From a virus (Duplodnaviria; Heunggongvirae; Uroviricota; Caudoviricetes): 37,677 nucleotides of DNA. The DNA lies in the IMG/VR virus record IMGVR_UViG_2579778866_000003. One strand, written 5' to 3'. Made by a program: the position numbers and the translations under genes. Every line of letters starts with the position of its first letter. Position 1 is the stretch's first letter. Shown here in pieces: positions 1-37,012 of the stretch. The notes below the pieces were generated by a model. It saw only the letters and a list, made by a program, of their open reading frames with translations, made no database searches and was not told where the DNA came from.

Positions 1-1053
1 TTACGGGGTAATGCCAACCGCTGCCGCCACTTTGTCGCCACTTGGCAGCGTTGCCAGAGGATTGAAACGGAGCGCCGTTTCTAGATGATCCGGTGCCAGA
101 TGTGCGTAACGCATAGTCATTTTTATATCGTGGTGTCCGAGAATTTTTTGTAAGGCCAGAATGTTTCCACCCGACATCATGAAGTGCGCCGCAAACGTAT
201 GGCGCAGAACGTGTGTGAGTTGACCGCGAGGGAGCACGATAGACGTTTTTTCCATCACGGATAAAAATTGAAAATAGCAGTCTGTGAAGAAATTGAACCC
301 ATCAAGCGCCATGATCTCTTCGTAAAGCTCTTTACTGATAGGGATGCTTCTGTTTTTCTTCCCCTTCGTTCTGACAAAGGTAATTCGGTATTTGGTCACC
401 TGTGAGCGGGTAAGATTTACGGCTTCACGCCAGCGTGCGCCTGTGCTTAAGCATATCTTAACTACCAGTGCCAGAATTGGGTCCTGACGTTTGCAATCAG
501 CCAGCAATTCAACAATCTGCTCATGGGTAAGCCATGCCATCTCTTTTTCTGCGATGGTGAATTTTCGCATGTTCTCCAGTGGGTTCGGATACGACCATTC
601 GCCCAGACGGGATAGTTCGCTAAAAACACTACTTAGATAGCTTTGCTCCAGGTTAATGGTGACCGGGCTTGCTCCTTTCTTCCATTTCTCGCTGAAGTAG
701 ATCTCGCCTGTCAGGCGTTTATCTCGATAGTGGGCAAACATTTTAGAGGTGAGATCGGTTGCAAGAGGATTGCCCAGAGCGTCAACCATCAACAGCAATT
801 TGTCATAGACATGCTGCCCAGCTGTCAGAGATTTACCATGTAGTTTGAACCATAGCTCAACCACGTCTTTCAGTGTTCGACGATCCACTGATTCACCCAG
901 CCAGGGCTTTGCTTCGGTTTCTTCCATCGTGTGGCGCTCAAAAGCCAGTGCTTCGCCTTTGGTAGCGAATTGTTTACGCACACGACGCCCACTTCGTCCG
1001 GCGGGGTAACATTCGCAAAGCCATTTCCCTGTTGTTAGTTTTCGTACTGCCAT
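1..1053 (-). CDS. int: Tyrosine integrase (P2/186 Int family)
   Basis: 350 aa; C-terminal catalytic region with HVLRHTF (HxxR) and MRYAHL (catalytic Tyr) motifs; located at the prophage end next to the repressor region. Confidence 0.9.
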   Translation of the reverse strand: MAVRKLTTGKWLCECYPAGRSGRRVRKQFATKGEALAFERHTMEETEAKPWLGESVDRRTLKDVVELWFKLHGKSLTAGQHVYDKLLLMVDALGNPLATDLTSKMFAHYRDKRLTGEIYFSEKWKKGASPVTINLEQSYLSSVFSELSRLGEWSYPNPLENMRKFTIAEKEMAWLTHEQIVELLADCKRQDPILALVVKICLSTGARWREAVNLTRSQVTKYRITFVRTKGKKNRSIPISKELYEEIMALDGFNFFTDCYFQFLSVMEKTSIVLPRGQLTHVLRHTFAAHFMMSGGNILALQKILGHHDIKMTMRYAHLAPDHLETALRFNPLATLPSGDKVAAAVGITP

Positions 1054-1077
1054 AAAAAGCCCTCATATCAGAGGGCT
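1054..1077 (-). terminator. Hairpin (agccctc / gagggct) with T-run on the minus strand, immediately upstream of the int start codon
   Basis: Inverted repeat 1058-1064 / 1071-1077; on the minus strand the stem is followed by TTTTT and then the int ATG (1053-1051); the GAGGG arm could double as the int Shine-Dalgarno. Confidence 0.45.
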
Positions 1078-1135
1078 AAATTTAACTGTATATGTAACCA
1101 GTAATCAATGTGTGATTACTATGAAACATACATTG

Positions 1136-2812
1136 CTAAGCAACATGTAGTTCATCGTTGGCGGAAGTGGCTGCTTTGCGCTCCTGCTCAATAGATAGAG
1201 ACTCTCTATATTCTTTCGCCTCTGCAAACATTGTCCAGTGGGCGTTGATGTTCATGTCTTCAATAACTGATTTGATTTCTTTTAAATTTACGTTAAAAAA
1301 CTCTTTTCGTGAGTTAATTTTATTGACCTGCTTTTCGTTGAAAACTTTATGCAGATGGTTTTCTAATGATGGTGCATCATCACTATAAATCATCGCATGA
1401 ACATCGAACGAAAAAGGAACACTAGCATCTCCGAGTTCACGAACACGATCAAGTGGTTCAAGGCGGCGTGTCATTCCAATTTTATATACATCTTCGCCAA
1501 ATGAACCAATATTACTAATGATATAGACGTGGCCTGATCTGGTTTGTTGAGCCATAGAAATAGCTCGTTGATTTTTAGCTTCAGCTTCTTCATATTTTAA
1601 CTGTAGTTCAGCTATTTTTTGCTCTAAAGCTAAGCGTTGTTCTTCATTTGCAAGCATAAGTTCTTTCGTTGCTTTATTTATAGCTTGCTGAATAGCTTTT
1701 TCTTCTTTTTCAGCTTCTTTTATCGCTTTTTCATATTCTCTACGAGCTCTTTCCTCTTCACGAAGCTGTTCTTTAATCCTTCTTTGCTCTTCTTTTTCTT
1801 CGAGCATAATTTCATTAACTGCTACACCCCATTTTAGCTCGTTGAGTCTTGCCTGAAGATAGATGTCACTTATTTTTGCGGACCTAAAGGCAGAGCCATT
1901 GTAATTTACTAGTTGAAATGCATCTTTTATTTCTTGGGAAAGTTTTCCAAAATTGTTGTGTTTGACTTTTGATAAAATACTGTCAACTCTTCCATTGAAG
2001 GCATCCAAAACAAAGTTTATGGCAGTATTACGCCTGTTTTGCTCAACATAATCACACGAAGCAGCTTTATTAGTTTTTATTAATGATTTGGTTAACTCTC
2101 TGGCTTTTTGTAATTCCTTGCCTGCATCTGTAAATTCATAATTTTCTGCCAGCTCATCAAGTACACTACGGTTAGGGATGATCCATTCATCACCATAACC
2201 TTCAATTTTATTTTTCATTGATTTTGCAACTGCTTCATATTTTTCTGCAAACTCTTTAGCTTCATATGCTGAACCAGCAATCTCCTTTGCTCTTTCTTCT
2301 GCATCAGAAATAATTTTTACTGCATTGTCATTAGCATTTGAGATTAGCTCATTTGCTTTATTATTAGCATTATCAAGACGTTCTTTGGCTTTCAGGCGTG
2401 CATCGCGAGCGTCTTTGGTGATTGCTATAGCTTCGCTATTAGCGTTGCTTATTGTCATCTGAGCTTGATAATTTGCTTCGTTTACTGTTTTAGCCGCCTT
2501 AATTTGGGCTTCATCTATTTTTTGCTTGGCTATTGAGTCCGCATTTTTTATCTTATTCTCTGCATCCATTACTGCGCTGTGCAATTCTTCGTATTGCCAC
2601 AATGGTGCTGCTCGCCCTTCAAGCTCTGATAATTCTCGTACGGTCTGTGCTAGTTTTTCTTGATTTTCAATCAGTTGGTTAGAAAGGGCTATGTTGTTAG
2701 CTGTCAGGTTATCTATAGCCGCTTTGTGTTTTTTACTTTGTTTAAATAATATTACAGCTAGAACAGGGGCGAGAAATGCTAATAAGAGTATAACGATGGC
2801 AAATGAATTCAT
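1136..2812 (-). CDS. Accessory membrane-anchored coiled-coil protein with C-terminal T5orf172 (GIY-YIG-like) domain, DUF4041-type architecture
   Basis: 558 aa; N-terminal hydrophobic helix (FAIVILLLAFLAPVLAVILF); long Ala/Lys/Glu/Asn-rich coiled-coil; C-terminal GHVYIISNIGSFGEDVYKIGMTRRLEPLDRVRELG motif; AAGGA Shine-Dalgarno 7 nt before the ATG; visibly AT-rich. Confidence 0.75.
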   Translation of the reverse strand: MNSFAIVILLLAFLAPVLAVILFKQSKKHKAAIDNLTANNIALSNQLIENQEKLAQTVRELSELEGRAAPLWQYEELHSAVMDAENKIKNADSIAKQKIDEAQIKAAKTVNEANYQAQMTISNANSEAIAITKDARDARLKAKERLDNANNKANELISNANDNAVKIISDAEERAKEIAGSAYEAKEFAEKYEAVAKSMKNKIEGYGDEWIIPNRSVLDELAENYEFTDAGKELQKARELTKSLIKTNKAASCDYVEQNRRNTAINFVLDAFNGRVDSILSKVKHNNFGKLSQEIKDAFQLVNYNGSAFRSAKISDIYLQARLNELKWGVAVNEIMLEEKEEQRRIKEQLREEERARREYEKAIKEAEKEEKAIQQAINKATKELMLANEEQRLALEQKIAELQLKYEEAEAKNQRAISMAQQTRSGHVYIISNIGSFGEDVYKIGMTRRLEPLDRVRELGDASVPFSFDVHAMIYSDDAPSLENHLHKVFNEKQVNKINSRKEFFNVNLKEIKSVIEDMNINAHWTMFAEAKEYRESLSIEQERKAATSANDELHVA

Positions 2813-2832
2813 TTTAAAATCCTTTTACTATA

Positions 2833-3429
2833 TTAATTCGAGACTATTGTACTTCTTATACAAGCAACCACTTCAATATCAGAAAATGCACATTCAAAGC
2901 TATTCTCTGCTGTTGTAATTTTAATCATTCCTTTAGGAAGCCTTGTGATTTTTCGAATGGAATAGGTTCCGTCGATATTGATTAACCAGTTTCCATCAAG
3001 TACTTCAGAAAATTTTTGATCACAAATGTATGTGACGAGTCCATCCTGAACAACAATTGGTGATGAAAGGTTTGCAGGAAGAAATGATGAATCGAAGACA
3101 TATGAACCGTCTTCAATCATTTTGCCTGCGGCAAGGCGAAACTTAACAAGCTCTTCTGTAGCTGCTGTCAGCGAGCTTTGCTTAAGGCCTTGTCCGGTAG
3201 TTAACCATTTGAGGGAGGTTCCTGTTTCAAGAGCACATTGGATTATCCAGTCAGCAGGAAATGTATCCCGCAAATACCTGTTCGCTAGTGTGCTTTTTGA
3301 TACTTCCAAGTGATCAGCTAAAGCCTGTCGTGTCGTAAAGCCATAGGCTTCGACTAATCGCTCAATCGCAGCCTTACCACCTTTATTGGGATTTATTTTG
3401 ATCTCACTTGGGTACTTTGATGTTGGCAT
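2833..3429 (-). CDS. cI: CI-type immunity repressor (186 CI-like)
   Basis: 198 aa; N-terminal segment LADHLEVSKSTLANRYLRDTFPADWIIQCALETGTSLKWLTTGQG resembles the phage CI repressor HTH family; divergent from the apl/cII lytic operon. Confidence 0.7.
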   Translation of the reverse strand: MPTSKYPSEIKINPNKGGKAAIERLVEAYGFTTRQALADHLEVSKSTLANRYLRDTFPADWIIQCALETGTSLKWLTTGQGLKQSSLTAATEELVKFRLAAGKMIEDGSYVFDSSFLPANLSSPIVVQDGLVTYICDQKFSEVLDGNWLINIDGTYSIRKITRLPKGMIKITTAENSFECAFSDIEVVACIRSTIVSN

Positions 3430-3524
3430 ATCTCTTTTGCGATCCTAGTATCAGTTTTGTACCCAATTGGGTACTTGTCACGATTACTACAGGCTCACCA
3501 CAAGCCAATAGGAGATGTTGCATC
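3408..3524. promoter_or_regulatory. Lysis-lysogeny switch region with operator-like palindrome GTACCCAATTGGGTAC
   Basis: Perfect 16-bp palindrome at 3459-3474; additional TTGGGTAC half-site copy at 3408-3415; candidate rightward promoter TTGGCA (3423-3428) and TAGTAT (3445-3450). Confidence 0.4.
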
Positions 3525-3746
3525 ATGACCCCTAACATTTCAATAACTCTGAATACGCCACACGTCACAATCGAGCGTTATAGCGAACTTACTGGTCTTT
3601 CAATCGACACAATCAACGATATGTTGGCGGATGGTCGCATTCCTCGGCATCGTCTTCGTAAAGACAAGAAAAGAGAAAAGGTAATGATCAACCTTGCTGC
3701 TCTTACCGTTGATGCACTTACTGATTGCAATGTTGTATTCAACTAG
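3525..3746 (+). CDS. apl: Apl/Cox-like excisionase and transcriptional regulator
   Basis: 73 aa starting MTPNISITL; AGGAG Shine-Dalgarno at 3510-3514; first gene of the rightward operon opposite cI. The longer ORF beginning at 3408 is probably over-extended. Confidence 0.55.
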
Positions 3747-3778
3747 TTCCATTTTGGGATACATCAGAGGTGTCGACC

Positions 3779-4288
3779 ATGTTTGATTACCAAGTTTCCA
3801 AACATCCACATTTTGATGAAGCCTGTCGTGCATTCGCACTGCGCCACAATCTGGTGCAACTGGCAGAACGTGCGGGCATGAATGTGCAGATTCTGCGGAA
3901 CAAGCTGAACCCAGCTCAACCTCATTTATTAACCGCACCAGAAATCTGGCTGCTTACCGATCTGACTGAAGATTCAACGTTGGTAGATGGTTTTCTGGCA
4001 CAGATTCATTGTCTGCCATGTGTACCGATTAATGAGGTAGCAAAAGAGAAACTGCCGCATTACGTCATGAGCGCAACTGCAGAGATCGGGCGTGTTGCAG
4101 CAGGTGCGGTATCTGGTGATGTAAAAACTAGTGCCGGTCGTCGTGATGCTATCAGCAGCATTAACTCTGTAACACGACTGATGGCGCTGGCTGCTGTTTC
4201 ATTGCAAGCCCGTTTACAGGCTAATCCTGCGATGGCGAGTGCAGTTGATACCATGACTGGCCTTGGTGCTTCATTCGGTTTGCTGTGA
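3779..4288 (+). CDS. cII: CII-like lysogeny establishment regulator
   Basis: Start at [45 protein letters not shown] with AGAGG Shine-Dalgarno; HTH-like N-terminus; position after apl as in 186. Confidence 0.6.
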
Positions 4289-4709: not shown

Positions 4710-5051
4710 ATGGCAATTAATGGCGCTGCAGCAACTGTTCCATTAAGCCCCGGTGAACGCCTGAATGGACTTAATCACATTGCGGAGTTAAGGGCGAAAG
4801 TTTTTGGCCTGAATATTGAGTCAGAGCTTGAGCGGTTTATTAAAGATATGCGTGATCCACGGGATATCAATAATGAACAAAATAAACGGGCACTGGCTGC
4901 CATATTCTTTATGGCAAAAATTCCAGCTGAACGTCATAGCATCAGCATTAATGAGCTGACCACTGACGAAAAGCGGGAGCTGATTAAAGCAATGAATCAT
5001 TTTCGTGCAGTGGTGAGCTTATTTCCCAGACGGCTAACCATGCCGAATTAA
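4710..5051 (+). CDS. Hypothetical early protein
   Basis: 113-aa ORF in the early operon, same strand, no overlap with neighbours. Confidence 0.5.
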   Translation: MAINGAAATVPLSPGERLNGLNHIAELRAKVFGLNIESELERFIKDMRDPRDINNEQNKRALAAIFFMAKIPAERHSISINELTTDEKRELIKAMNHFRAVVSLFPRRLTMPN

Positions 5052-5118
5052 CCAACTAATGAAATTAATGGCGTAAACCCGCCGGGCATCCCTTTATCTA
5101 AATTCAGGAGAATTGATT

Positions 5119-5352
5119 ATGCGTAATATTGAAACCCTCACGACTAAAACCGGACCGGATGACGCAGGGCTTAATATTTTACTGACAGAGGCTCGTCTGG
5201 AAGAACGCCGGGCAAGGGCTGAAGCAATGGCTGCTCGCCTTGATAGCCTGGCGTGTCATATCTCATCCCGCCAGCTAAACCACGTGGAAGCGGCAGAACT
5301 GCTGCGCGTGACTGCTGAAGCAATCCAGAACGAAGCGCAGGAGATCCACTAA
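5119..5352 (+). CDS. Hypothetical early protein
   Basis: ATG at 5119 preceded by AGGAG (5106-5110); 77 aa. Confidence 0.5.
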   Translation: MRNIETLTTKTGPDDAGLNILLTEARLEERRARAEAMAARLDSLACHISSRQLNHVEAAELLRVTAEAIQNEAQEIH

Positions 5353-5579
5353 TGGCTGATGCAATGGATCTCGTACAGCAGCGCGTTGAAGAAGAACGCC
5401 AGCGCCATATCCGTGCAGCCCGTGCCAAATCACCGGGCGTGTCACGCGTACTTTGCATTGAATGTGAAGCGCCAATTCCGCCAGCACGACGCCGCGCCAT
5501 TCCGGGAGTGCAGCTTTGCATTACCTGTCAGGAAATCGCAGAACTGAAAGGCAAACATTACAACGGAGGTGCTGTATGA
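5352..5579 (+). CDS. TraR/DksA-family C4 zinc-finger protein
   Basis: 75 aa with CIECEAPIP ... CITCQ (CxxC-N17-CxxC) pattern; AGGAG Shine-Dalgarno. Confidence 0.7.
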   Translation: MADAMDLVQQRVEEERQRHIRAARAKSPGVSRVLCIECEAPIPPARRRAIPGVQLCITCQEIAELKGKHYNGGAV

Positions 5580-6433
5580 GCACTATCCTGAAATGGGCGG
5601 GAAATAAAACCGCCATTATGCCAGAACTGAAAAAATACCTTCCTGCTGGCCCGCGACTGGTTGAACCTTTCGCGGGTTCCTGTGCTGTGATGATGGAAAC
5701 GGATTATCCCAGCTATCTGGTTGCGGATATTAATCCTGATTTAATCAACCTCTATAAAAAGGTTGCCGCTGATTGTGAATCGTTTATATCTCGCGCCAGA
5801 GTTTTATTTGAGATCGCAAACAGGGAGGTGGCTTATTACAACATAAGGCAGGAGTTTAACTGCTCAACTGAAATTACTGATTTCATGAAAGCGGTATATT
5901 TCCTGTATCTCAATCGTCACGGTTACCGTGGTTTATGTCGCTATAACAAGAGCGGGCATTTCAACATTCCCTACGGTAATTATAAAAATCCGTATTTCCC
6001 TGAAAAAGAACTTCGCACATTTGCAGAAAAAGCCCAGCGAGCAACGTTTATCTGCGCCAGCTTTGATGAAACGCTGGCGATGTTGAAGGCGGGAGATGTG
6101 GTGTATTGCGATCCGCCATATGACGGTACGTTTTCCGGCTATCACACTGATGGTTTCACTGAAGATGACCAGTATCACCTGGCATCCATTCTTGAACATC
6201 GGTCATCAGAAGGACATCCGGTCATTGTTTCTAACAGTGACACATCCCTGATCCGTTCGCTGTATCGCAATTTTACTCACCACTATATCAAGGTTAAACG
6301 CAGCATCGGTGTGGCAACTGGCGAGGGTAAATCAGCAACAGAAATCATTGCTGTTTCCGGGCCGCGCTGCTGGATGGGATTTGATTATTCGCGTGGCGTG
6401 GATAGTTCTGCCGTGTACGGAGTACGTGCATGA
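5576..6433 (+). CDS. dam: DNA adenine methyltransferase (Dam-like)
   Basis: [12 protein letters not shown]-terminus, FAGSCAV motif I and VYCDPPY (DPPY) motif; GGAGGT Shine-Dalgarno; start overlaps the TraR-like stop. Confidence 0.85.
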
Positions 6434-8844
6434 GTCATGCCGATATGAACAACTGCTGCGGCTTTAACGAGGCTGCCGCAGCATTCTCATGGAACAGCCC
6501 GAAAAAGGCCATTAACCCTTATCTGGACCCGGCGGAAGTTGCGCCGGTTTCTACGCTTTCAAACCTGATCACTCTGTACGCTGCCGATAACGAGCAGGAA
6601 CAGTTGCGCCGCGAGGCACTGAGTGATCAGGTCTGGGAGCGTTATTTCTTTAATGAATCACGTGATCCTGTCCAGCGCGAAATGGAGCAGGATAAGCTCA
6701 TTAGCCGGGCAAAGCTGGCGCATGAGCAGCAGCGTTTTAATTCAGACATGGTCATTCTGGCGGACGTCAACGCCCTGCCTTCCCATATCAGCAAGCCGCT
6801 GATGCAACGTATTGAATACTTCAGCAGCCTGGGCAGGCCAAAGGCTTATTCCCGCTATTTACGTGAGACGATTAAGCCATGTCTGGAACGACTGGAGCAT
6901 GTACGCGACAGTCAGCTATCTGCATCTTTTCGCTTTATGGCAAGCCATGAAGGGCTGGACGGCCTGCTGATCCTGCCTGAAATGAGTCAGGATCAGGTGA
7001 AACGCCTGTCCACCCTGGTAGCTGCGCATATGAGTATGTGCCTTGATGCAGCTTGTGGTGATTTGTATGCCACCGATGACGTTAAGCCAGAAGAAATCCG
7101 CAAGACATGGGAAAAGGTGGCAGCGGAAACCCTGCGTCTGGATGTCATCCCACCTGCGTTTGAGCAACTCCGTCGGAAAAGAAACCGCCGTAAACCCGTG
7201 CCCTATGAACTCATTCCGGGTTCGCTGGCGCGTATGTTGTGCGCCGACTGGTGGTATCGGAAATTATGGAAGATGCGTTGCGAATGGCGGGAAGAGCAGT
7301 TGCGCGCTGTTTGCCTGGTCAGCAAAAAAGCATCTCCTTATGTCAGCTATGAAGCCGTGATGCATAAACGTGAGCAGCGCCGTAAGTCGCTGGAGTTTTT
7401 CCGTTCTCATGAACTGGTGAACGAAGACGGCGACACGCTGGACATGGAGGATGTGGTAAACGCCAGCAGCAGCAACCCTGCGCATCGCCGCAATGAGATG
7501 ATGGCCTGTGTTAAAGGTCTGGAGCTTATTGCGGAAATGCGCGGTGACTGCGCCGTTTTCTACACTATCACCTGTCCGTCGCGTTTCCATTCCACGCTAA
7601 ATAACGGCAGACCAAACCCGACCTGGACAAACGCGACGGTAAGACAAAGCAGCGATTATCTGGTCGGCATGTTTGCTGCATTTCGTAAGGCGATGCACAA
7701 AGCCGGGTTGCGCTGGTATGGCGTGCGGGTGGCTGAGCCGCATCATGATGGCACAGTTCACTGGCACCTGTTGTGTTTCATGCGCAAAAAAGACCGCCGT
7801 GCCATCACTGCATTACTGCGTAAGTTTGCCATCCGTGAAGACCGCGAGGAGCTGGGCAATAACACTGGGCCGCGCTTTAAGTCTGAGTTGATTAACCCGC
7901 GCAAAGGAACGCCGACAAGCTACATCGCGAAATATATCAGTAAGAACATTGACGGTCGTGGTCTGGCTGGCGAGATCAGCAAGGAAACGGGTAAATCTCT
8001 GCGTGATAACGCTGAATACGTGAATGCCTGGGCGTCTCTGCATCGTGTTCAGCAATTCCGCTTCTTTGGTATTCCGGGGCGTCAGGCTTACCGTGAACTT
8101 CGCTTGCTGGCTGGTCAGGCGGCAAGGCAACAGGGTGACAAAAAAGCAGGTGCGCCGGTACTGGATAACCCGCGTCTTGATGCCATTCTGGCTGCTGCTG
8201 ATGCTGGTTGTTTTGCCACCTACATCATGAAGCAGGGCGGCGTACTGGTTCCCCGTAAATATCACCTCATCAGAACCGCTTATGAAATCAACGAAGAGCC
8301 GACCGCCTATGGCGATCACGGCATTCGTATTTATGGCATCTGGTCACCCATTGCAGAGGGCAAGATCTGCACCCATGCAGTGAAGTGGAAAATGGTTCGT
8401 AAAGCCGTTGACGTTCAGGAGGCGGCAGCCGACCAGGGCGCTTGCGCCCCTTGGACTCGTGGCAATAACTGTCCCCTTGCTGAAAATTTGAACCAACAGG
8501 AGAAAGATAAATCAGCTGATGGGGACATCAGAACGGACATTACCCGCATGGATGACAAGGAGTTGCACGATTACCTGCACAGTATGAGCAAAAAAGAGCG
8601 CCGGGAACTGGCTGCAAGGTTACGCCTGGTTAAACCGAAACGGCGTAAAGACTACAAACAGCGAATTACAGACCATCAGCGACTGCAGCTCGTCTATGAG
8701 CTGAAGTCCAGAGGATTTGATGGTAGCGAGAAAGAGGTCGATTTACTCCTTCGCGGCGGCAGTATTCCGTCAGGAGCAGGCCTGCGTATCTTCTATCGGA
8801 ACCAGCGTTTGCAGGAAGATGATAAGTGGCGGAACCTGTATTAA
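6430..8844 (+). CDS. A: Replication initiation endonuclease (P2 gpA-like)
   Basis: 804-aa protein at the P2 A position; start overlaps the dam stop. Confidence 0.8.
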
Positions 8845-8936
8845 TTACGCGGGTTAACAATTCGTGCTCTTAATAATACCAGGCATATCAGGCTGATGAA
8901 CGTAAAAAAACGTTTTACATCAGTAAGATTATTATA

Positions 8937-8956
8937 TACTGTAAATATAAACAGTG
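8937..8956 (+). promoter_or_regulatory. LexA (SOS) box TACTGTAAATATAAACAGTG
   Basis: CTGT-N8-ACAG with AT-rich spacer, matching the E. coli LexA consensus TACTGTATATATATACAGTA at most positions; lies 40 bp upstream of the small ORF / DinI-like pair. Confidence 0.6.
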
Positions 8957-8996
8957 GTTATGTATACAGTATTGCTTTGGTGTCATAGGAGGAAAG

Positions 8997-9185
8997 ATGC
9001 AGGACTATTTTTTGGAGTCTTTGAAGCTCCAGCGCATTGATTTTTTTCTTAAGCTTGTAGCGACTAGTGAGTGTAGTGATGAAGAGAAGGGGCTGGCTTT
9101 GCAGTGGGTTTCTGAACTAACAGATGAACTCATGGCAAAAATCAGAACCCACGAATACAACCGCTCAATGGATGTCATCAGTTGA
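8997..9185 (+). CDS. Small SOS-controlled protein, possible N-terminal part of a Tum-like antirepressor
   Basis: 62-aa ORF with strong GGAGGAAAG Shine-Dalgarno; directly downstream of the LexA box and upstream of the DinI-like ORF. Confidence 0.5.
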   Translation: MQDYFLESLKLQRIDFFLKLVATSECSDEEKGLALQWVSELTDELMAKIRTHEYNRSMDVIS

Positions 9186-9196
9186 GGTGACTTTTT

Positions 9197-9430
9197 ATGC
9201 GCATTGAAATAATGATCGATAAAGAGCAGAAGATTAGCCAGTCTACCCTGGACGCCCTTGAATCCGAGCTTTACCGCAATCTGCGCCCCCTGTATCCCAA
9301 AACGGTAATTCGTATCCGCAAAGGTAGCTCTAACGGTGTGGAACTTACCGGATTGCAACTGGACGAAGAAAGAAAACAAGTGATGAAAATTATGCAGAAG
9401 GTGTGGGAAGACGACAGCTGGCTGCATTAA
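9197..9430 (+). CDS. DinI-family protein (Tum/DinI-like)
   Basis: 77 aa, MRIEIMIDKEQKISQSTLDALESELYRNLRPLYP ... KVWEDDSWL matches the DinI family pattern; GAGGTG Shine-Dalgarno. Confidence 0.75.
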   Translation: MRIEIMIDKEQKISQSTLDALESELYRNLRPLYPKTVIRIRKGSSNGVELTGLQLDEERKQVMKIMQKVWEDDSWLH

Positions 9431-9438
9431 GAAACGTT

Positions 9439-9477
9439 GCCCCCAAGAGGATTCATTCTGATGGGGGCTAGTTTTGG
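9439..9477 (+). terminator. Hairpin GCCCCCA / TGGGGGC followed by T-rich tail
   Basis: 7-bp GC-rich stem 9439-9445 / 9462-9468 followed by TAGTTTTGG; just after the DinI-like stop. The loop is long. Confidence 0.4.
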
Positions 9478-9620
9478 CAACGAGTGAAACGAGGCGTAAG
9501 GTGGGTGGGCATTTTGATAAGTGCTCGTTCGCTTTGTGCCAGAGGCGGGCATTAATACAAATTTCACGTGATAAAACGGTACTCAGTTATTCTAATCTGA
9601 CATGCATAAACGTTGTTGGA

Positions 9621-10031
9621 TTACAAAACATCAACAACTTCAAACTCTTCCATAATCAGCTCCATATCATCAGAAAAGTAACCTTCACATGTAAAAAATC
9701 GTTGATGCTCTCTCTGCCAATATTCAAGACTCAAATCGCCTTCACCTTCCTTGCGAGCGAACTCGGCAGTAACATCACAAAAACGCACCAGTCGCATCGA
9801 CACCAGCCGGGTCACGCATACCGGTACATCTTGGCCGTTAAGGATGATGTTATAGCTCCCAATCCTTGGGGCAAACTCTTCCTTCTGGTAAGAGGCATAA
9901 GAGCCGCAGGAGGCCGTTTTAATTCCTTTTTTGATAAGCGCTGCAAGCTCGTTAGCCAGTTCAGGGCTGTCGCCCATTTGCCAGGCATTCGCGTCCGGAT
10001 ATTTCATCTTTAATTCATCAACCGTAACCAT
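9621..10031 (-). CDS. ASCH-domain protein (PUA-like fold)
   Basis: 136 aa; N-terminal WQMGDSPELANELAALIKKGIKTASCG resembles the ASCH domain signature; encoded antisense to flanking genes; AT-rich. Confidence 0.55.
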   Translation of the reverse strand: MVTVDELKMKYPDANAWQMGDSPELANELAALIKKGIKTASCGSYASYQKEEFAPRIGSYNIILNGQDVPVCVTRLVSMRLVRFCDVTAEFARKEGEGDLSLEYWQREHQRFFTCEGYFSDDMELIMEEFEVVDVL

Positions 10032-10313
10032 TACAAGTCCTTTCTAATTGTAAAAATAGATAAATAGCTGAGCATTAATTGTTCAAATATTAACAGTGAT
10101 GCTCTCTTGTTAGTATCATAGTCCGTTTCTCGTTCACAGTGGGCCTTCAGTTTTTTGTCTGCTTTGTGCCAAAAACAGACGTCTAAATATCCTATTGTCA
10201 GTTATAAAAAGTGATGAGTGTTCTACATATTAAATTTACAGAGGCAGAAACTCCGTGTTTAAATACGGTTCTTTCCACCCAATAAGCATTAACAACTTAA
10301 GGACCCCATAAAA

Positions 10314-11276
10314 ATGCCAGTATTAGACTTCAAAGAAATACCAGAGGCTCATAAAGCAACAGGGCTGCAAGACACATTTGAACTTTTTTCTCGCGACTTC
10401 TTAGCTTTTCTGGGATATAAAATTATATCTGACCCAGATAGAGGGGCTGACGGTGGGGTTGATATTATAGCCGAAGAAAAAAGGACTGGTGTCGGCGGGG
10501 AAACAATTATCCGTTGGTTGGTAAGCTGTAAGCATAAAGCTCATAGTGGAAATTCAGTTAATCCAGGAGATGATGCAAATATTACTGATCGAGTAATAGC
10601 GAATAACTGCCAAGGATTTATCGGGTTCTATTCAACTCTTGCTAGTGCAGGTCTGTCTGGAATACTTGACGGGTTGAAAGGACGAATTGAATTTCAGGTT
10701 TTCGATAAAGAGAAAATAGAGAGGGAACTTTTACACTCTTCCAGAGGATTGGAAATTGCCGAAAGGTACTTCCCAAAGTCGTTATCTGAGTGGAAAACAG
10801 AAAACCCCAAACCCGCAAGAATATTTTCCGATGAACCTAGCTTAAAATGCAAAGTTTGCAAGAAAGAGCTTCTGTCTCAAGACGACAAGGGAATTATCAC
10901 TATATGGCAAAGAATCCGCACCGACTACGAAAAAGAACCAGAGTATAATGAACATATTTTTTGGACGTGTCGAGGCAACTGCGACCAAGCACTCCGGCAG
11001 TATGTTAGAAAACAAACAAACAATGGCCTTATTGATGGCTGGGAAGATATAGCTGATGTAATGATGCCAACTGTGTTTATAAAATGGGTCATGACAATAA
11101 TGAATGAGTTAAGATCTGGGACCCTATATTCAGATGAGGCATTTGACGAACTCAAGACATTTTTGATCAATATTTACCCATTTGCATGTCGTCATCTCAC
11201 CGAAAAAGAAAAAGAAAGGGTTAAATCATTAATGATGATACCTTCGTATCTTGGCGGCATGAACTATGAAGGTTAA
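10314..11276 (+). CDS. Mrr-cat-like (PD-(D/E)xK) nuclease domain fused to a Cys-containing C-terminal domain of unknown function
   Basis: 320 aa; N-terminus FLAFLGYKIISDPDRGADGGVDIIAEEK ... RWLVSCKHK resembles the Mrr restriction-endonuclease catalytic domain; C-terminal half has CKVCKK and CRGNCD; AT-rich. Confidence 0.65.
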   Translation: MPVLDFKEIPEAHKATGLQDTFELFSRDFLAFLGYKIISDPDRGADGGVDIIAEEKRTGVGGETIIRWLVSCKHKAHSGNSVNPGDDANITDRVIANNCQGFIGFYSTLASAGLSGILDGLKGRIEFQVFDKEKIERELLHSSRGLEIAERYFPKSLSEWKTENPKPARIFSDEPSLKCKVCKKELLSQDDKGIITIWQRIRTDYEKEPEYNEHIFWTCRGNCDQALRQYVRKQTNNGLIDGWEDIADVMMPTVFIKWVMTIMNELRSGTLYSDEAFDELKTFLINIYPFACRHLTEKEKERVKSLMMIPSYLGGMNYEG

Positions 11277-11352
11277 GAGAGGGGGCGTTAGCCATCTTCG
11301 AGAGTATTCAGTAAGGATTTGAAGAGAGAATATATAAATAGACCATTTATAC

Positions 11353-11397
11353 CTGAACAGAAGTCATATTGAGCTAGACGTTTCTGTTCAGTTTTTT
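11353..11397 (+). terminator. Rho-independent terminator downstream of the Mrr-like gene
   Basis: Perfect 10-bp inverted repeat CTGAACAGAA (11353-11362) / TTCTGTTCAG (11382-11391) followed by TTTTTT. Confidence 0.5.
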
Positions 11398-11767
11398 AGT
11401 GTCTTCATTATCATATATCGCTCGAAAAGTCTCCCCGAAAACCAAGAGCATTTCCTTAATTGAAGTTGCTGTTGTCACCGCTGCGCATCCGTAACAGCTT
11501 ACATGCTGCTTCGCTCTGTTTCAGTGCCAAAAAGCAAGGAGTTAATGTCCGCTTTTCACTCACAGCGGACTTTCATCTTTGTAAACCCGTATGATTCGCT
11601 TTTCAGCGGTCATTCAGATACGGATTTACGCTTCCCTTGGCTGTGCATGACTATGCTGCATGAAATCGCATGATCGATTGAGGATCGTTTTTGCAGAGAC
11701 CTGCTAGAACTGGCGAGCTTTTACTCATGTCATGCAGGTGCATGAAAACCACTGCATAAAGCGGGCA

Positions 11768-11793
11768 GGCGTGGCGGGGATACGATTGCGCGC
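11768..11793 (+). other. Candidate cos site (cohesive-end region)
   Basis: GGCGTGGCGGGGATACGAT followed by TGCGCGC; the first 13 nt and the following TGCGCGC match my recollection of the P2/186 19-nt cohesive end and its flank; located before Q as in P2. Confidence 0.4.
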
Positions 11794-11867
11794 AGAAGAT
11801 TATTATTGGTACACTGTCGGTGACTCTCTACGCAGATCTTACACATTAATTTCTAATGGGGCATGCT

Positions 11868-12668
11868 ATGATCTTTCTAAGTCATAATCACCGTGACAAA
11901 AGGTTTGTAAGTGTTATAGCGGAAAAACTAGCAGATGTTTATGGGCGTGATAACGTATTCTACGATTCTTGGTCTATCCAACCCGGAGAGGGTATTATTG
12001 ACAAGATGAATTTAGGAATGGAGAATGTATCGTTCTTTTTCTTTTTTGTCACAGAAAATAGTTTGGCAAGTAACATGGTAAAAATGGAATGGCAAAATGC
12101 TTTAATTAAGGCATCGTCCGGGAAGTGTAAATTTATACCAATACGTTGCCAGAATATATCCTTGCCTGCTCTGCTTACTCAAACGCTATATATTGATCTT
12201 TATTCGTATGGGATCGATGTGGCAATAAGACAAATTATAGATGTCATTAATCAACAAAATACGTATATTCCTAATCCTGAGAAGTATTCAAACCTCTCCT
12301 ATGATATTAAGGATGGTGATGGGGGTAAGATAGTGAAATTATCAGCAATGGATTTTTTAGAACCAATTGCTGATTTTATGATGATTATGGATAATACAAT
12401 TAAGCATGATGATGTTGTTGTTATGGTCAATGGAGAAAGCACATTCACTCAGGGGTTTATTGAAAATGCATCTTTAGAAAATGGTATGAAAGTAAGTGGT
12501 GCCACTGTTGGCCTAAATCGGGGGTTAACACCAACGATGCCAATGTATGTTTCTCTTAGGTTAAAGGATGGTTCACCTTTGAATATATTTGCGGTGCTAC
12601 ATCGAGTAAGTACCGAGCGTTATGCTCCTATACCACATAAAGCCGATGATGCCTTTAGAGTAAAATAA
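11868..12668 (+). CDS. TIR-domain protein with C-terminal domain of unknown function
   Basis: N-terminus IFLSHNHRDKRFVSVIAEKL ... VFYDSWSIQPGEGIIDKM ... FFFFFVTENSLASNMVKMEWQNAL fits the bacterial TIR pattern; alternative ATG at 11856; AT-rich; sits between cos and Q. Confidence 0.7.
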   Translation: MIFLSHNHRDKRFVSVIAEKLADVYGRDNVFYDSWSIQPGEGIIDKMNLGMENVSFFFFFVTENSLASNMVKMEWQNALIKASSGKCKFIPIRCQNISLPALLTQTLYIDLYSYGIDVAIRQIIDVINQQNTYIPNPEKYSNLSYDIKDGDGGKIVKLSAMDFLEPIADFMMIMDNTIKHDDVVVMVNGESTFTQGFIENASLENGMKVSGATVGLNRGLTPTMPMYVSLRLKDGSPLNIFAVLHRVSTERYAPIPHKADDAFRVK

Positions 12669-12677
12669 AAAGCAATA

Positions 12678-12703
12678 TGGTGGCTATATAATTAAGGCCA
12701 CCA
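12678..12703. terminator. Bidirectional hairpin between the convergent TIR gene and Q
   Basis: TGGTGGC (12678-12684) / GCCACCA (12697-12703) stem with T-rich sequence on the minus strand downstream of the Q stop. Confidence 0.45.
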
Positions 12704-12712
12704 ATTTATATC

Positions 12713-13741
12713 TCATAAACAATAGGATGAAAATGCAATAACTTTCTCACCCAGCCAATGGTTTAACTCCTCCATGCGTTTCTGTAATGGCAAAAGTTCA
12801 TTGCGCACAAACACATTTGCGGCCTTCTCCACATCCCCAAACCCTCCAACATTATTAGGCATAATCCCCATCATTTGCGGCGGCACGCGGTGCGCAGCCA
12901 TCATGTCATCGCGGCTCACGTTCTTGATATTCAAAAACTCATCCTTCGCCGCCACCTCTGACAACGGGATAATCTGAAGCCCGTCCTTTTTGCCGTTAGG
13001 CGAGTACATAAACAGGTTGCGGAAGTTACCCGGACCTTTGGCACTTTTCATTGCATTGCGGAGGTTGTTCACGTCCTCCTGGTTCTGCGCAGCATCGGTC
13101 ATGTACATGATGAAGCCTGCATGACTACCGTTAATGTAATACTTGCGGCGGAACAGCGTGGCGGACTCATTGAGCAGGGCGGACGGAATGGCAGAAAGAT
13201 AGCCGGGCAGGCCGTAGATCTCCTGGTTAATGTCCGGTTCCATCAGATGAAAAATGCTGCCTTTCGTGAACTGATACGGCTGGGTTGTCATACCGTATTG
13301 CACAAACCAGTAGGTATCCAGGTCTAACCCGCGTCGGGTGTATTTTGCCAGAGCAGGCTCAAGGGCGATAACTTCACCGAAGCGGTTCGTGCGTTTCTCC
13401 AGGTAGGCGTTACCAAATACCAGATAGTCCTGCACAAAACGTGAAAAAGCCTGCTGGCTGAGCAGCGGGTGAGGGATGTAGGTACTGGTCAGAATGTTGC
13501 ATTTCACCGCAATTGGTGAACTGTGATGCACGGCGGCGCGGAAGGTGCGCGCCAGTCCGTCAAAGCTTACTGGCGGCTCATACCAGCGATCTGTCTGTAC
13601 GCATTCCACATAGTCCAGCAGTTCTCGGCGGTCCAGAACAGGAACGGGATCGCCGAAGCTGAATGCTTCGGCTGTAGTTTGACTTTTAAGCTGGATCTGT
13701 TTCGTCGCCGCAGCGCGGTTCTTCTTACTCTTTCCCATCAA
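12713..13741 (-). CDS. Q: Portal protein (P2 gpQ-like)
   Basis: 342 aa; first gene after cos on the minus strand; overlaps the P stop. Confidence 0.85.
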   Translation of the reverse strand: MMGKSKKNRAAATKQIQLKSQTTAEAFSFGDPVPVLDRRELLDYVECVQTDRWYEPPVSFDGLARTFRAAVHHSSPIAVKCNILTSTYIPHPLLSQQAFSRFVQDYLVFGNAYLEKRTNRFGEVIALEPALAKYTRRGLDLDTYWFVQYGMTTQPYQFTKGSIFHLMEPDINQEIYGLPGYLSAIPSALLNESATLFRRKYYINGSHAGFIMYMTDAAQNQEDVNNLRNAMKSAKGPGNFRNLFMYSPNGKKDGLQIIPLSEVAAKDEFLNIKNVSRDDMMAAHRVPPQMMGIMPNNVGGFGDVEKAANVFVRNELLPLQKRMEELNHWLGEKVIAFSSYCL

Positions 13742-26960: not shown

Positions 26961-27533
26961 ATGATCATGCTTATTGGCTATGTACGCGTGTCAACAAATG
27001 ACCAGAACACCGATTTGCAACGTAATGCGCTGAACTGCGCGGGATGTGAGCGGATTTTTGAGGACAAAATCAGTGGCACTAAGTCCGACAGACCGGGGCT
27101 TAAAAAACTGCTCAGGACACTATTGGCAGGAGACACGCTGGTTGTCTGGAAGCTGGACAGGTTGGGGCGCAGTATGCGGCATCTTGTTACGCTGATAGAA
27201 GAGTTGCGCCAGCGTGGTGTGAATTTCCGAAGCCTGACTGACAGTATTGATACCAGTACCCCAATGGGCCGTTTCTTTTTTCATGTCATGGGTGCCCTGG
27301 CTGAAATGGAACGCGAACTGATAGTTGAACGTACCCGGGCAGGGCTGGCTGCAGCTCGTGCTAAAGGCAGAGTAGGTGGACGCCGTCCTAAGTTGACCAC
27401 TGAACAGTGGGCACAGATTGGACGTTTACTCGAGGCCGGAGAATCAAGACAGCGTATTGCACTGATTTTTGATGTAGGCGTTTCTACCATTTATCGAAAA
27501 TTTCCGGCAAATAAGAGCAATAAATCTCCCTGA
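26961..27533 (+). CDS. Serine DNA invertase (Hin/Gin/Cin/Pin family)
   Basis: 190 aa; MLIGYVRVSTNDQNTDLQRNAL ... VVWKLDRLGRS ... GRFFFHVMGALAEMERELIVERT closely matches Hin/Gin; C-terminal HTH. Confidence 0.9.
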   Translation: MIMLIGYVRVSTNDQNTDLQRNALNCAGCERIFEDKISGTKSDRPGLKKLLRTLLAGDTLVVWKLDRLGRSMRHLVTLIEELRQRGVNFRSLTDSIDTSTPMGRFFFHVMGALAEMERELIVERTRAGLAAARAKGRVGGRRPKLTTEQWAQIGRLLEAGESRQRIALIFDVGVSTIYRKFPANKSNKSP

Positions 27534-35057: not shown

Positions 35058-36743
35058 TTATCCTAATCCTGGCCATACCATGACGATGATTGTCCCTGCC
35101 AGCGTCAGCAGGACGTTGGCGATTGCATAGGTGCCCGCATAGCCCAGCGCCGGGATGTTACTGCGAGCTGTATCACTGATGATCTCCATTGCCGGCGCGC
35201 AGGTGCGTGCGCCCATCATTGCGCCGAACAACAGTGCGCGGTTCATTCGCAATACATAAGCACCGAACAAGAAACAGATAACCACTGGCACAAGACTGAC
35301 AATCAATCCGGCAATCAACATCTGACCGCCAATCGCGCCCAGGCCGTTATTAATACCGCTACCGGCGCTCAGACCAACGCCTGCCATAAACACCATTAAG
35401 CCGAACTCTTTCACCATGCTTAATGCACCCTGCGGAATGTAACCGAAGGTCGGGTGGTTAGCGCGCATAAAGCCCAGCATAATTCCGGCGAATAACAACC
35501 CGGCAGCGTTCCCCATGCCGAAACTGAATGTGCTGAACTGGAAGGTGATCATCCCGATCATCAGCCCAATAACAAAGAAGGCGCAGAATGCCAGCAAGTC
35601 AGTGACCTGGCTGTGAATCGAGATAAAGCCGATGCGATCGGCGATGGTTTTTACGCGACGGGCATCGCCGCTGACTTGTAAAACGTCACCTTTGTTAAGC
35701 ACGACGTTGTCATCTATCGGCATCTCAATCTGGCTACGAATGACGCGGTTAAGGAAGCAACCGTGATCGGTCAACTTCAGTTGTGCGAGACGTTTGCCCA
35801 CGGCGTTATGGTTTTTAACGACCACTTCTTCAGTGACGATACGCATGTCGAGAAGGTCACGATCGAAAACTTCTTTGCCGTTACGGAAGCTGGGATCGAG
35901 TCGTGCGTGGGCGTCGGGATAGCCTACCAACGCTATTTCATCGCCCATTTGTAGCACAGCATCACCGTCTGGATTCGCCAGAATCCCGTTACGTCGAATA
36001 CGTTCAATGTAGCAGCCAGTTTGTCGATAAATACCCAGTTCACGCAGATTTTTGCCGTCGGTCCAGGCCACCAGCTCCGGGCCGACGCGGTAGGCGCGGA
36101 TCACCGGTAAATAAACCTTACGGTTGGCATCAGTGTCCAGGCCACGTTCGCGGGCGATTTGCTGGGCGCTGGTCTGTAAGTCCTGATGCTGCAATTTCGG
36201 CAAGTAACGCGCACCAACAATCAAACTCACCAGACCGATTAAATAGGTTAAGGCATACCCGAGGCTCAGATTATCCAGTGCCAGTGAGAGCTGCCTGCTT
36301 TCCATGCCGGAATGACGCAGTGTATCGCCAGCACCGACCAGAACCGGTGTCGACGTCATAGAGCCAGCTAACATACCGGCCGTCAGGCCAATATCCCAGC
36401 CAAACAGCTTACCTAACCCTAAGGCGATCACCAGCGCACTGCCAACCATCACCAGTGCTAACATTAGGTAATTTTTCCCATCGCGAAAAAAAATGGAAAA
36501 AAAGTTCGGTCCGGCTTCGACCCCGACGCAGAAAATAAACAGCATAAAGCCAAGATTAAGCGCGTCGGTGTTAATGCTGAAATGTTGTTGGCCTAATAAC
36601 AGCGATACGACTAAAACGCCAATGGAATTACCCAGTTGGATCGAACCAAGTCGTAATTTCCCGAGACATAGCCCAAGCGCGAGGACCACAAATAATAACA
36701 GAATGTAATTCCCATTTAACAATTCGGCGACGTTTATATTCAC
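35058..36743 (-). CDS. ybjL: Putative transport protein YbjL (host)
   Basis: 561-aa polytopic membrane protein matching E. coli YbjL in size and in the ybjL-ybjM-grxA neighbourhood. Confidence 0.9.
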
Positions 36744-37012
36744 GGAGGCTAACTTCTTGTTTACTAGTAAGCTGTTGAAAGAAATGGTAATTTACGATAA
36801 TGTTTTTTACCAGAATTCAGGGCGCAGATTCATTCAGCGCACCTAAAAGATAGTAAAGTAACAATATATTTTACTAGTGTAATCACATTAGGTATCAACG
36901 GCTATATGAATTGCGTTGGCCTATATTAGCATGGAATGCGAAGCGGCTTTATCTTACTGAACGCCACACTGGCGAAAAATGTGTTCGATAGACGCAGTGT
37001 CAGGAGGAACGA

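Follow-up and report, generated by a model that had tools for sequence, protein, structure and literature searches.

A SNIPE (PD-λ-1) family gene between the cI repressor and integrase genes of a 186-like prophage

The window analysed here is a stretch of 37,677 nucleotides of a tailed virus (Caudoviricetes; IMG/VR record IMGVR_UViG_2579778866_000003), which opens with an integrase gene (int), an accessory gene and a cI repressor gene, all lying on the minus strand (Table 1). The CI protein is 29% identical to CI of phage 186, and CII, encoded on the opposite strand, is 70% identical to its 186 counterpart. The first 9.4 kb of the window match phage vB_EcoM-813R9 at 99.6–100%; identity with this phage throughout was rejected because the accessory regions beyond 9.4 kb differ.

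Table 1. Features of the cI–int region, with positions in the window, strand and the basis of each assignment.
Feature	Position	Strand	Basis
Tyrosine integrase, 350 aa, downstream of the SNIPE-like gene; right-hand boundary of the cargo slot	1..1053	(-)	Pfam Int_N + Phage_integrase
int leader spacer, 82 nt, two hairpins	1054..1135	(-)	Terminator scan; fold -32.1 kcal/mol, z=-5.0
SNIPE / PD-λ-1 family gene	1136..2812	(-)	558-aa ORF, ATG start, stop TAG at 1136-1138
C-terminal T5orf172 / GIY-YIG nuclease domain, aa 426-520, putative catalytic Glu E484	1253..1537	(-)	Pfam
Linker helix, aa 331-425	1538..1822	(-)	AlphaFold2 helices 316-387 + 390-425
DUF4041 / "SNIPE-associated" domain region, aa 206-330 (Pfam core 267-322)	1823..2197	(-)	Pfam PF13250
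Long N-terminal helix (aa 26-205) of variable sequence and heptad periodicity, a putative adaptor or stalk	2198..2737	(-)	AlphaFold2 + heptad contrast
Predicted N-terminal transmembrane helix, aa 4-23, then basic KQSKKHK	2744..2803	(-)	Kyte-Doolittle
cI-to-gene spacer, 20 nt, RBS AAAGGA	2813..2832	(-)	Sequence
186-type CI repressor, 198 aa, upstream of the SNIPE-like gene	2833..3429	(-)	Pfam Phage_CI_repr + Phage_CI_C
Candidate lysogenic promoter TTGAAA-17-CAACAT, overlaps apl/cox start	3515..3543	(-)	By eye; positional analogue of annotated 186 pL
CII/CP76	3725..4288	(+)	Neighbour gene
Candidate CII-activated establishment promoter, 186 pE analogue	3740..3800	(-)	Resemblance + position at apl-cII junction

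An earlier note on this DNA had described an AT-rich gene of 558 aa inserted between int and cI, at a site where 186 has none, and both statements are correct: the list of ORFs agrees, the GC content is 36.9% in the gene, 40.4% in cI, 48.7% in int and 50.9% in the whole window, and in 186 the cI and int genes overlap by 1 nt. Judged by sequence comparison, the ORF is a real gene and not a chance one, since dN relative to homologues is ~0.10 with dS saturated and the homologues of its product number in the thousands. Strong purifying selection acts on it across genera, and the length of 558 aa is kept in more than 100 cluster representatives.

The predicted protein starts with its sole segment exceeding 1.6 in the Kyte–Doolittle profile (19-residue mean 3.16), in agreement with the N-terminal transmembrane helix proposed before. 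By the positive-inside rule, the basic stretch after this helix points to a cytoplasmic C-terminus, and the protein is probably anchored in the inner membrane in this orientation. The long coiled-coil, also proposed before, is supported in two regions, the N-terminal helix (heptad contrast z=5.9) and the linker region at aa 330–425 (z=3.3); AlphaFold2 predicts long helices for both, the first of them unbroken over residues 2–203. The N-terminal helical region gives weak matches to DivIVA/Wag31, V-ATPase subunit E and ATP synthase subunit b, and members of the 558-aa subfamily differ most in the first ~125 aa, which comprise the transmembrane helix and the start of the long helix. DUF4041 (PF13250, named “SNIPE” in newer Pfam) matches at E=3.1e-12, scoring 46.6 bits where the cut-off is 27, and residues 231–330 of this region carry a net charge of +7. 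The AlphaFold2 model as a whole is elongated (mean pLDDT 79), passing from the transmembrane and long helix through DUF4041 and a second helix to an alpha/beta domain.

The C-terminal domain was assigned in the earlier note to the T5orf172 (GIY-YIG-like) type, and the Pfam search upholds this with two matches above the cut-offs, to T5orf172 (aa 427–520, E=3e-17) and MUG113 (aa 443–520, E=4e-20). Seven residues (Y430, G446, T448, R449, R450, E484 and N497) are invariant across 55–56 diverse homologues. The model of this domain has a pLDDT of 91, and its fold search against the PDB ranked the GIY-YIG nucleases Slx1, BH0048 and HIGLE at the top with weak scores (E=0.18–1.0), which is consistent with the nuclease assignment and does not prove it. 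The fold search with the whole protein returned nothing from the PDB at E<=0.001, long-helix proteins dominating the ranking and Slx1 standing at ranks 39 and 47. A profile search of PDB sequences found no solved relative and gave weak helix matches, such as ATP synthase subunit b (E~0.006–0.009). In NCBIfam, the matches were sub-threshold coiled-coil ones alone (DivIVA/Wag31, SMC and V-ATPase subunit E). Sub-threshold matches of this kind explain the labels “chromosome segregation ATPase” and “vacuolar-type H+-ATPase subunit H”, both of which we rejected.

The family to which the protein belongs is indicated by two PADLOC models of PD-Lambda-1, PDLC03976 (E=3.1e-120, aa 106–550 against model positions 36–481 of 491) and PDLC03977 (E=4.9e-116), which together cover aa 105–551, and by PHROG 1847 (E=1e-132). 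The DUF4041 and PADLOC searches, suggested as checks in the earlier note, were thus both positive. In RefSeq, identical copies bear the names “DUF4041 domain-containing protein” or “SNIPE associated domain-containing protein”. The architecture, for which the earlier note gave no system name, was described as PD-λ-1 by Vassallo et al. in 2022 (PMC9519451) and renamed SNIPE by Saxton et al. (Nature 2026; PMC13190303). By these profile matches, the window protein is a clear relative of SNIPE; the finding is real and already known.

SNIPE is a membrane-anchored nuclease that cuts phage DNA during injection (PMC13190303). Its membrane localisation and the cytoplasmic position of its C-terminus were shown experimentally, and defence is lost both in the E414A mutant and on deletion of DUF4041, a domain with a positively charged DNA-binding face (PMC13190303). 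It was found in association with the tape-measure protein of the phage and with ManYZ, and acts on siphoviruses only (PMC13190303). The N-terminal region, which varies most in the family, and DUF4041 were proposed as determinants of phage specificity; one transmembrane helix is present in 59% of the homologues (PMC13190303). The first ~105 aa of the window protein lie outside the PD-Lambda-1 profile match, in agreement with this variability.

For a direct comparison we used a 500-aa E. coli protein as a proxy for SNIPE, since it has, at the stated positions, every one of the nine residues that the SNIPE paper names. The order of domains is the same in both (transmembrane helix, helical stalk, DUF4041, linker helix and GIY-YIG/T5orf172 domain, encoded by a single gene), and the published structural description of SNIPE agrees with the elongated model of the window protein (PMC13190303). 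The overall identity is 38% over 460 aa, but it is distributed very unevenly: 74% in the nuclease domain, where SNIPE E414 aligns with E484, 48% in the linker helix, 25% in the DUF4041 Pfam core, where K327 stands in place of SNIPE W257, and 8% in the N-terminal ~205 aa, which are unrelated to those of the proxy and ~70 aa longer. Because identity is just 8% and 25% in the regions proposed to determine specificity, the phage range and any host partner may differ from those of SNIPE. Both genes are prophage-borne, but their settings are dissimilar: the proxy gene is located between ren and the nin region of a lambdoid prophage, on the strand opposite to its neighbours, whereas in the 186-like myovirus prophage studied here the window gene is apparently a second cistron that follows cI. 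SNIPE itself was cloned with its native promoter (PMC13190303).

Two other groups of proteins invite comparison. Free-standing T5orf172/GIY-YIG nucleases (PADLOC PDC-S57, E. coli genes named “GIY-YIG nuclease family protein”, and proteins of phiP27 and ES18) share the nuclease domain, at 55–60% amino acid or ~71% nucleotide identity, but match the linker helix and the nuclease part alone (from about aa 380–400) and are not of the full-length SNIPE type. Zorya, Kiwa and prophage Sie proteins also work at the inner membrane while the genome is being injected, and many of them are prophage-encoded and expressed in lysogens (PMC13190303); they have no sequence or domain kinship to the window protein, which has a nuclease of its own and lacks components of Zorya or Kiwa, and PADLOC gave no match to these systems.

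The earlier note had proposed a role in superinfection exclusion or abortive infection. A role in defence is supported by the family match, and of the two modes the published SNIPE data favour exclusion at DNA entry. The abortive mode would mean a toxic effector, a nuclease freed or activated at the membrane that degrades the host chromosome as well, so that the infected cell dies. It agrees with the high toxicity of SNIPE deprived of its transmembrane helix, which cuts host DNA (PMC13190303), and the divergent N-terminus of the window protein could act unlike that of SNIPE; besides, it is one of the modes that the earlier note listed. However, SNIPE is a direct defence in which infected cells grow on at high MOI, unlike those with the abortive-infection control PD-λ-3 (PMC13190303), and the window protein retains the predicted transmembrane anchor and the SNIPE order of domains. 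We regard the abortive mode as very improbable.

The position of the gene suggests how it may be expressed. It was said before to start 20 bp after the cI stop, on the same strand and with no terminator between, and this is accurate: the gap between the cI stop and the ATG is TATAGTAAAAGGATTTTAAA, a terminator scan found nothing in it, and it folds no better than shuffled sequences (-1.8 kcal/mol, z=0.54). The length of the spacer and its AAAGGA motif are conserved in Klebsiella and Citrobacter loci, where the flanking genes are ~76–78% identical at the DNA level, and the lack of a terminator at this point is likewise shared across genera. From this geometry and the operon map of 186, we infer that the gene is co-transcribed with cI. 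Upstream of cI, the candidate analogue of 186 pL scores below the threshold of the consensus scan, and at the apl–cII junction the window sequence TGGAAAC..AATCAAACATG resembles 186 pE, TTTGGAAACCTGAAAATCAAACATG. The consensus promoter scan gave 3 sites against 7.6 expected by chance, none of them upstream of cI on the minus strand, and both promoters are assigned by positional analogy with 186, a phage whose CI is just 29% identical to that of the window.

On the other side of the gene, the second hairpin of the int leader (1058–1077) consists of AGCCCTC-N6-GAGGGCT followed by a T-run; it is terminator-like, abuts the int ATG and contains a Shine–Dalgarno-like GAGG. Its stem is invariant in loci whose genes are ~76% identical. 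An arrival of this hairpin together with the cargo was considered and rejected: related prophages whose cargo differs also have one at this site, formed by different, compensating stems, and it therefore belongs to the int leader.

The interval delimited in this manner, from the cI stop to the conserved int leader hairpin, behaves as a cargo slot. The order cI–gene–int recurs in Klebsiella and Citrobacter; in about 30 related loci different cargo lies between cI and int, and close relatives with the same int have unrelated cargo or none. The alternative cargoes are interchangeable, AT-rich and co-oriented; they include PADLOC PDC-S20, PDC-M11, PDC-M18 and HEC-01, while many cargo families of this slot are uncharacterised, for example proteins of 350+201, 309, 493, 468 and 395 aa, which had no PADLOC match. 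Among 5426 complete E. coli genomes, 1135 have the int type of the window; the SNIPE-like gene was found in 163 complete E. coli genomes and the cI allele of the window likewise in 163 (at least 80% coverage). These equal counts suggest that the cI allele and the SNIPE-like gene are linked and travel together. The gene is present in one copy per genome; in one E. coli genome an IS element interrupts it. Rousset et al. (2022; PMC9122126) described a cI–integrase defence hotspot in the P2-related K139-like phages of Vibrionaceae, and a minor “integrase-to-primase” hotspot is known in P2-like prophages (PMC13586616). These published hotspots refer to Vibrio phages or to a coarser interval, whereas the slot reported here is resolved in enterobacterial 186-like prophages.

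The distribution data bear on the question of whether the gene serves defence at all. It could be a selfish nuclease, either a T5orf172-type homing endonuclease or a nuclease of recombination boundaries, which spreads itself: T5orf172 domains are present in phage homing endonucleases and nuclease genes mark the boundaries of phage exchange (PMC10448857), and the window gene sits between two breakpoints of homology with Klebsiella phages (1064 and 3479). Against this possibility, which we consider extremely unlikely, are the SNIPE architecture given by the transmembrane anchor together with DUF4041, the single copy per genome, and the apparent nature of the mobile unit, which is cI plus the gene and not the gene alone, since in the examined loci the two have diverged about equally from their counterparts in the window (80–85% amino acid identity for cI, ~84% for the SNIPE-like gene) at a fixed spacing.

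A second possibility is that the gene belongs to the prophage's own life cycle, for example to the processing of prophage or host DNA during induction or injection, or to anchoring of DNA at the membrane, defence being incidental. The tight link to one cI allele (163 genomes each) and the position within the lysogeny module are in line with such a role. Still, the gene appears dispensable for the phage, as relatives with the same int have other cargo or none; several other cargoes of the slot have matches among known or candidate defence families; and SNIPE does not affect the induction of a resident prophage. This makes a role in the prophage's own cycle very improbable.

It may also be asked whether the gene is active in this particular prophage. 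A PD-Lambda-1 homologue is active in Streptococcus thermophilus, and two homologues from this species show entirely different activity despite 98.5% identity, so that membership of the family is no guarantee of activity. The existence of nearly identical inactive homologues, as well as the IS-split copy in one E. coli genome, would fit an inactive or decaying remnant in the window prophage. The full-length frame with all catalytic residues present, the strong purifying selection across genera and the preserved length of the protein argue for the contrary, and decay is hence a very unlikely explanation.

We think it probable that the whole set of observations is explained by a SNIPE-family single-protein defence which acts at DNA entry and is encoded by the second cistron of a lysogenic operon. 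[quoted passage not shown] The N-terminal stalk and DUF4041 would place the protein at the injection conduit, which would include the tape-measure protein of the phage and perhaps an inner-membrane protein of the host; DUF4041 would bind the DNA and the C-terminal GIY-YIG domain would cut it on entry, halting the infection with survival of the cell, and the membrane tether would keep the nuclease off the chromosome. According to the geometry and the 186 map, transcription from pL and pE would pass through cI into the gene, whose product would always accompany the repressor and thus protect every lysogen, and the hairpin just before int would separate the gene from integrase expression.

A broader reading can be offered tentatively. 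In enterobacterial 186-like prophages, cI and the gene next to it may form an exchangeable immunity/defence cassette, each cI allele having its own cargo. With a membrane-proximal stalk and a DUF4041 surface unrelated to those of SNIPE, the 558-aa variant would then recognise a conduit or phage group other than λ/ManYZ, and the unmatched slot cargoes could be new defence systems driven by the lysogenic promoter. We consider this joint reading possible and rather doubtful.

The analysis adds little new biology of its own: the family is named and detected by standard defence finders, its mechanism is published, and the cI–integrase hotspot is known for P2-related phages. Its practical gains are a correction to the label “chromosome segregation ATPase” that phage records carry in GenBank, and a natural variant with a divergent N-terminus and DUF4041, which can be used for testing the phage specificity of SNIPE. 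The compact slot between the cI stop and the int leader hairpin is a place to seek further cargo genes. For the bacterial host, a myovirus prophage probably gives its lysogens an entry-stage nuclease, which is expected to act against siphoviruses and would complement the immunity provided by the repressor.

The gene between cI and int of this prophage encodes a member of the SNIPE family, an assignment about as secure as can be reached from sequence. The PD-Lambda-1 models of PADLOC match it at E=3e-120 and E=5e-116 (aa 105-551), PHROG 1847 matches at E=1e-132, RefSeq calls identical copies "DUF4041 domain-containing protein" or "SNIPE associated domain-containing protein", and PF13250 is named "SNIPE" in current Pfam. 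PD-λ-1 was discovered by functional selection in E. coli (PMC9519451), its source being the 500-aa ECOR26 protein RCP76574.1, and was renamed SNIPE by Saxton et al. in Nature 2026 (PMC13190303). The earlier note had proposed a defence effector and could not say whether its architecture had been named; the PADLOC match gives it both a name and a probable defensive role.

This family is already characterised mechanistically. [quoted passage not shown] It cuts λ DNA during injection without affecting induction of a resident prophage, is found in association with ManYZ and the tape-measure protein, and acts against siphoviruses, not against myoviruses or podoviruses (PMC13190303). Since infected cells survive, SNIPE represents direct defence (PMC13190303), and abortive infection, the other role that the earlier note had considered, is improbable here. 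By analogy, the membrane-tethered nuclease of our prophage would cut phage DNA at the site of injection as it enters.

The protein anatomy agrees with this assignment and with the membrane helix, coiled coil and C-terminal T5orf172 domain described previously. The only strongly hydrophobic segment (aa 4-23, mean Kyte-Doolittle value 3.16) is followed by KQSKKHK, and the membrane topology is predicted from it. Heptad periodicity well exceeds that of shuffled controls in aa 26-205 (z=5.9) and aa 330-425 (z=3.3), and an AlphaFold2 model built with 55 diverse homologues (mean pLDDT 79) places long helices there; the Pfam domains all score above their curated cut-offs. The nuclease domain modelled separately reached pLDDT 91, and in a PDB fold search its best matches were the GIY-YIG nucleases Slx1, BH0048 and HIGLE, yet at just E=0.18-1.0. 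Y430, G446, T448, R449, R450, E484 and N497 are invariant in 55-56 homologues. That such a nuclease serves as a selfish homing enzyme appears unlikely.

Coordinates of the features in the window and in the SNIPE-like protein
Feature	Position	Strand	Remarks
int	1..1053	-	tyrosine integrase, downstream of the SNIPE-like gene
Spacer to int	1054-1135		GC-rich hairpin 1058-1077 directly before the int ATG
SNIPE-like gene	1136..2812	-	ATG start, 558 aa
cI	2833..3429	-	upstream of the SNIPE-like gene; Phage_CI_repr and Phage_CI_C domains
CII/CP76 regulator	3725..4288	+	domain match
gpA	6430-8844		replication gene
gpA–portal hotspot	8844-12713		three ORFs
Mrr_cat protein	10314-11276		320 aa, restriction-endonuclease-like domain
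TIR-domain protein	11856-12668		270 aa, Pfam TIR_2 E=1e-22
Hin-type serine invertase	26961-27533		190 aa, Resolvase and HTH_7 domains
Host DNA	35058-37390		right end of the window
DUF4041	aa 267-322		Pfam
T5orf172	aa 427-520		Pfam
MUG113	aa 443-520		Pfam
Helix	aa 2-203		AlphaFold2 model
Mainly helical domain	about aa 217-330		AlphaFold2 model
Long helices	aa 316-425		AlphaFold2 model
Alpha/beta domain	aa 427-520		AlphaFold2 model

For comparison with SNIPE itself, we used the 500-aa E. coli protein WP_109866709.1 (locus L004, 5805..7307) in place of RCP76574.1. It is encoded in a lambdoid prophage, flanked by ren and the nin genes, and was treated as a SNIPE proxy because each of the nine residues that the paper singles out (E223, N250, L253, W257, E264, K305, I308, T319 and E414) is in place at the stated position. 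Our protein is 38% identical to it over 460 aa: 74% in the nuclease domain, 48% in the linker helix, 25% in the DUF4041 core, 18% in the C-terminal tail, 13% in aa 206-266, and 8% in both the transmembrane helix and the N-terminal helix. At the N-terminus it has about 70 aa more than SNIPE, E414 aligns with E484, and the W257 column holds K327; of 56 aligned homologues, 46 have a Lys or Arg there, and W257R strengthens SNIPE defence against Bas14 (PMC13190303). The divergence follows the published family pattern, in which the nuclease is conserved, DUF4041 less so, and the N-terminus varies strongly (PMC13190303). It is greatest in the parts that the paper proposes to determine specificity, and the phage range may therefore differ from that of SNIPE; within the 558-aa subfamily, variation sits mainly in the first ~125 aa and the C-terminal tail. 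Homologues with 52-55% amino acid identity (73-89% coverage) occur in the phage records PP438427.1, OM868080.1 (Synechococcus), KP836356.2 and OZ018341.1 (Marinitoga), whose assigned hosts are very distant; these homologues are nearer to our protein than is E. coli SNIPE.

The lysogeny module of the window is 186-like (Peduoviridae). As reported before, the gene is AT-rich (36.9% GC; cI 40.4%, int 48.7%, window 50.9%) and fills an interval that is empty in 186, where cI and int overlap by one base. Exactly 20 nt, including AAAGGA, separate the cI stop from its ATG; the terminator scan found no terminator in this stretch, and its folding is no better than that of shuffled sequence. In 186, cI and int both belong to the lysogenic operon under pL and pE, and from this positional analogy we infer that lysogens would produce the SNIPE-like nuclease from the repressor operon; compared with 186, CI is just 29% identical and CII 70%. 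Because this prophage is a myovirus, a group that SNIPE does not act on, and resident prophages are spared as well, no harm to the phage itself would be expected from the gene. A role in the life cycle of the prophage is improbable.

The hairpin preceding int carries a Shine-Dalgarno-like GAGG in its 3' arm. In related prophages (loci L015-L086, 45 nt upstream of int), a hairpin occupies the same place with different but compensating stems (AGCCCTC/GAGGGCT, ATGCTCTCY/GGAGGGCAT, AAACTCTCCTAA/TTAGGAGAGTTT, ACCCCCTT/AAGGGGGT and GTAGCCC/GGGCTAC), preceded by a conserved ATACAGTTAAAT motif and followed in most cases, not all, by a T-run. It is missing where cI abuts int, including 186. The hairpin may act as terminator of the cI–cargo transcript, cover the ribosome-binding site of int, or do both.

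The family comprises 3366 clusters at 50% identity (E<=0.001), and its 558-aa form (82-100% identity) is found in Escherichia, Citrobacter, Salmonella, Klebsiella, Enterobacter and related genera. The first 4300 bases of the window are 100% identical to Escherichia phage vB_EcoM-813R9, in which the gene is labelled "chromosome segregation ATPase"; 99.6% homology continues to 9440, past which the accessory regions differ. Klebsiella and Citrobacter loci have exactly this layout, with a 198-aa cI, 20 nt, the gene, 82 nt and int, and keep the ribosome-binding site and hairpin; their genes are just ~76-80% identical to the window in DNA sequence. For the SNIPE-like gene, dN is about 0.10 and dS is saturated; we consider it unlikely that the gene is an inactive remnant. 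One copy is disrupted: in E. coli DETEC-S560 (match H31), ISVsa5 splits the gene. At L005 (E. coli 2014C-3061, 5001-7252), cI is an annotated pseudogene with an internal stop and the adjoining SNIPE-like gene is intact.

Among 5426 complete E. coli genomes (match at >=80% coverage), the SNIPE-like gene and this cI allele each occur in 163, compared as totals, versus 1118 for this int type (1135 counting any match). Some Klebsiella phages share int with the window as far as position 1064 and apl/cII from position 3479 onwards and have another cI and other cargo in between, so that both appear to move together. These data suggest that cI and cargo are exchanged as one cassette. Downstream of int, L020 (8235-10212) has a second, partial cI with a full SNIPE-type gene, which suggests that prophages of one type lie there in tandem or as remnants.

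We surveyed the slot in 77 int-related loci from species-representative genomes, in 48 of which int is preceded by a 186-type cI. About 17 of these resemble 186 in that cI directly adjoins int or comes close to it, and in ~30 the slot holds 0.4-3.3 kb of AT-rich cargo (29-41% GC), mostly co-oriented with cI. The cargo comprises about 30 protein families, the SNIPE type being the commonest (7 loci; L020 and L021 have an additional 309-aa ORF). The others include the PADLOC families PDC-S20 (PifA-like), PDC-M11A/B, PDC-M18A/B and HEC-01A/B, and many have no PADLOC match, for example those of L018 (350 and 201 aa), L020 (309 aa), L028 (493 aa), L052 (468 aa) and L058 (395 aa); a Pfam search of three of them (L018 350 aa, L020 and L028) matched none. 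In Klebsiella phage 4LV2017 (L002), the same slot, between gp02 and int, contains an unannotated ~200-aa ORF (~1245-1850, minus strand), apparently hydrophobic by eye. The location is not new, since a cI–integrase hotspot is known from Vibrio K139-like P2-related phages (PMC9122126) and a minor "integrase-to-primase" hotspot from P2-like prophages (PMC13586616).

Elsewhere in the window, the classical P2 hotspot between gpA and the portal gene is probably a second defence locus. Besides the Mrr_cat protein and the TIR-domain protein, which has weak PADLOC matches to TIR-NLR, PDC-S66 and ThsB, it encodes a 179-aa ORF for which searches gave no match; vB_EcoM-813R9 carries different cargo there. 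The invertase adjoins tail-fibre genes, which suggests an invertible tail-fibre segment. Host genes for an Asp-Al_Ex/TrkA_C permease (minus strand) and a YbjM family membrane protein lie at the right end, so the prophage ends before ~35 kb.

Both the defence family and this kind of hotspot have been described already, and what is still of interest is the naturally occurring N-terminal and DUF4041 variant, the apparent coupling of cI to its cargo, and the as yet untested genes found in this slot of related prophages.
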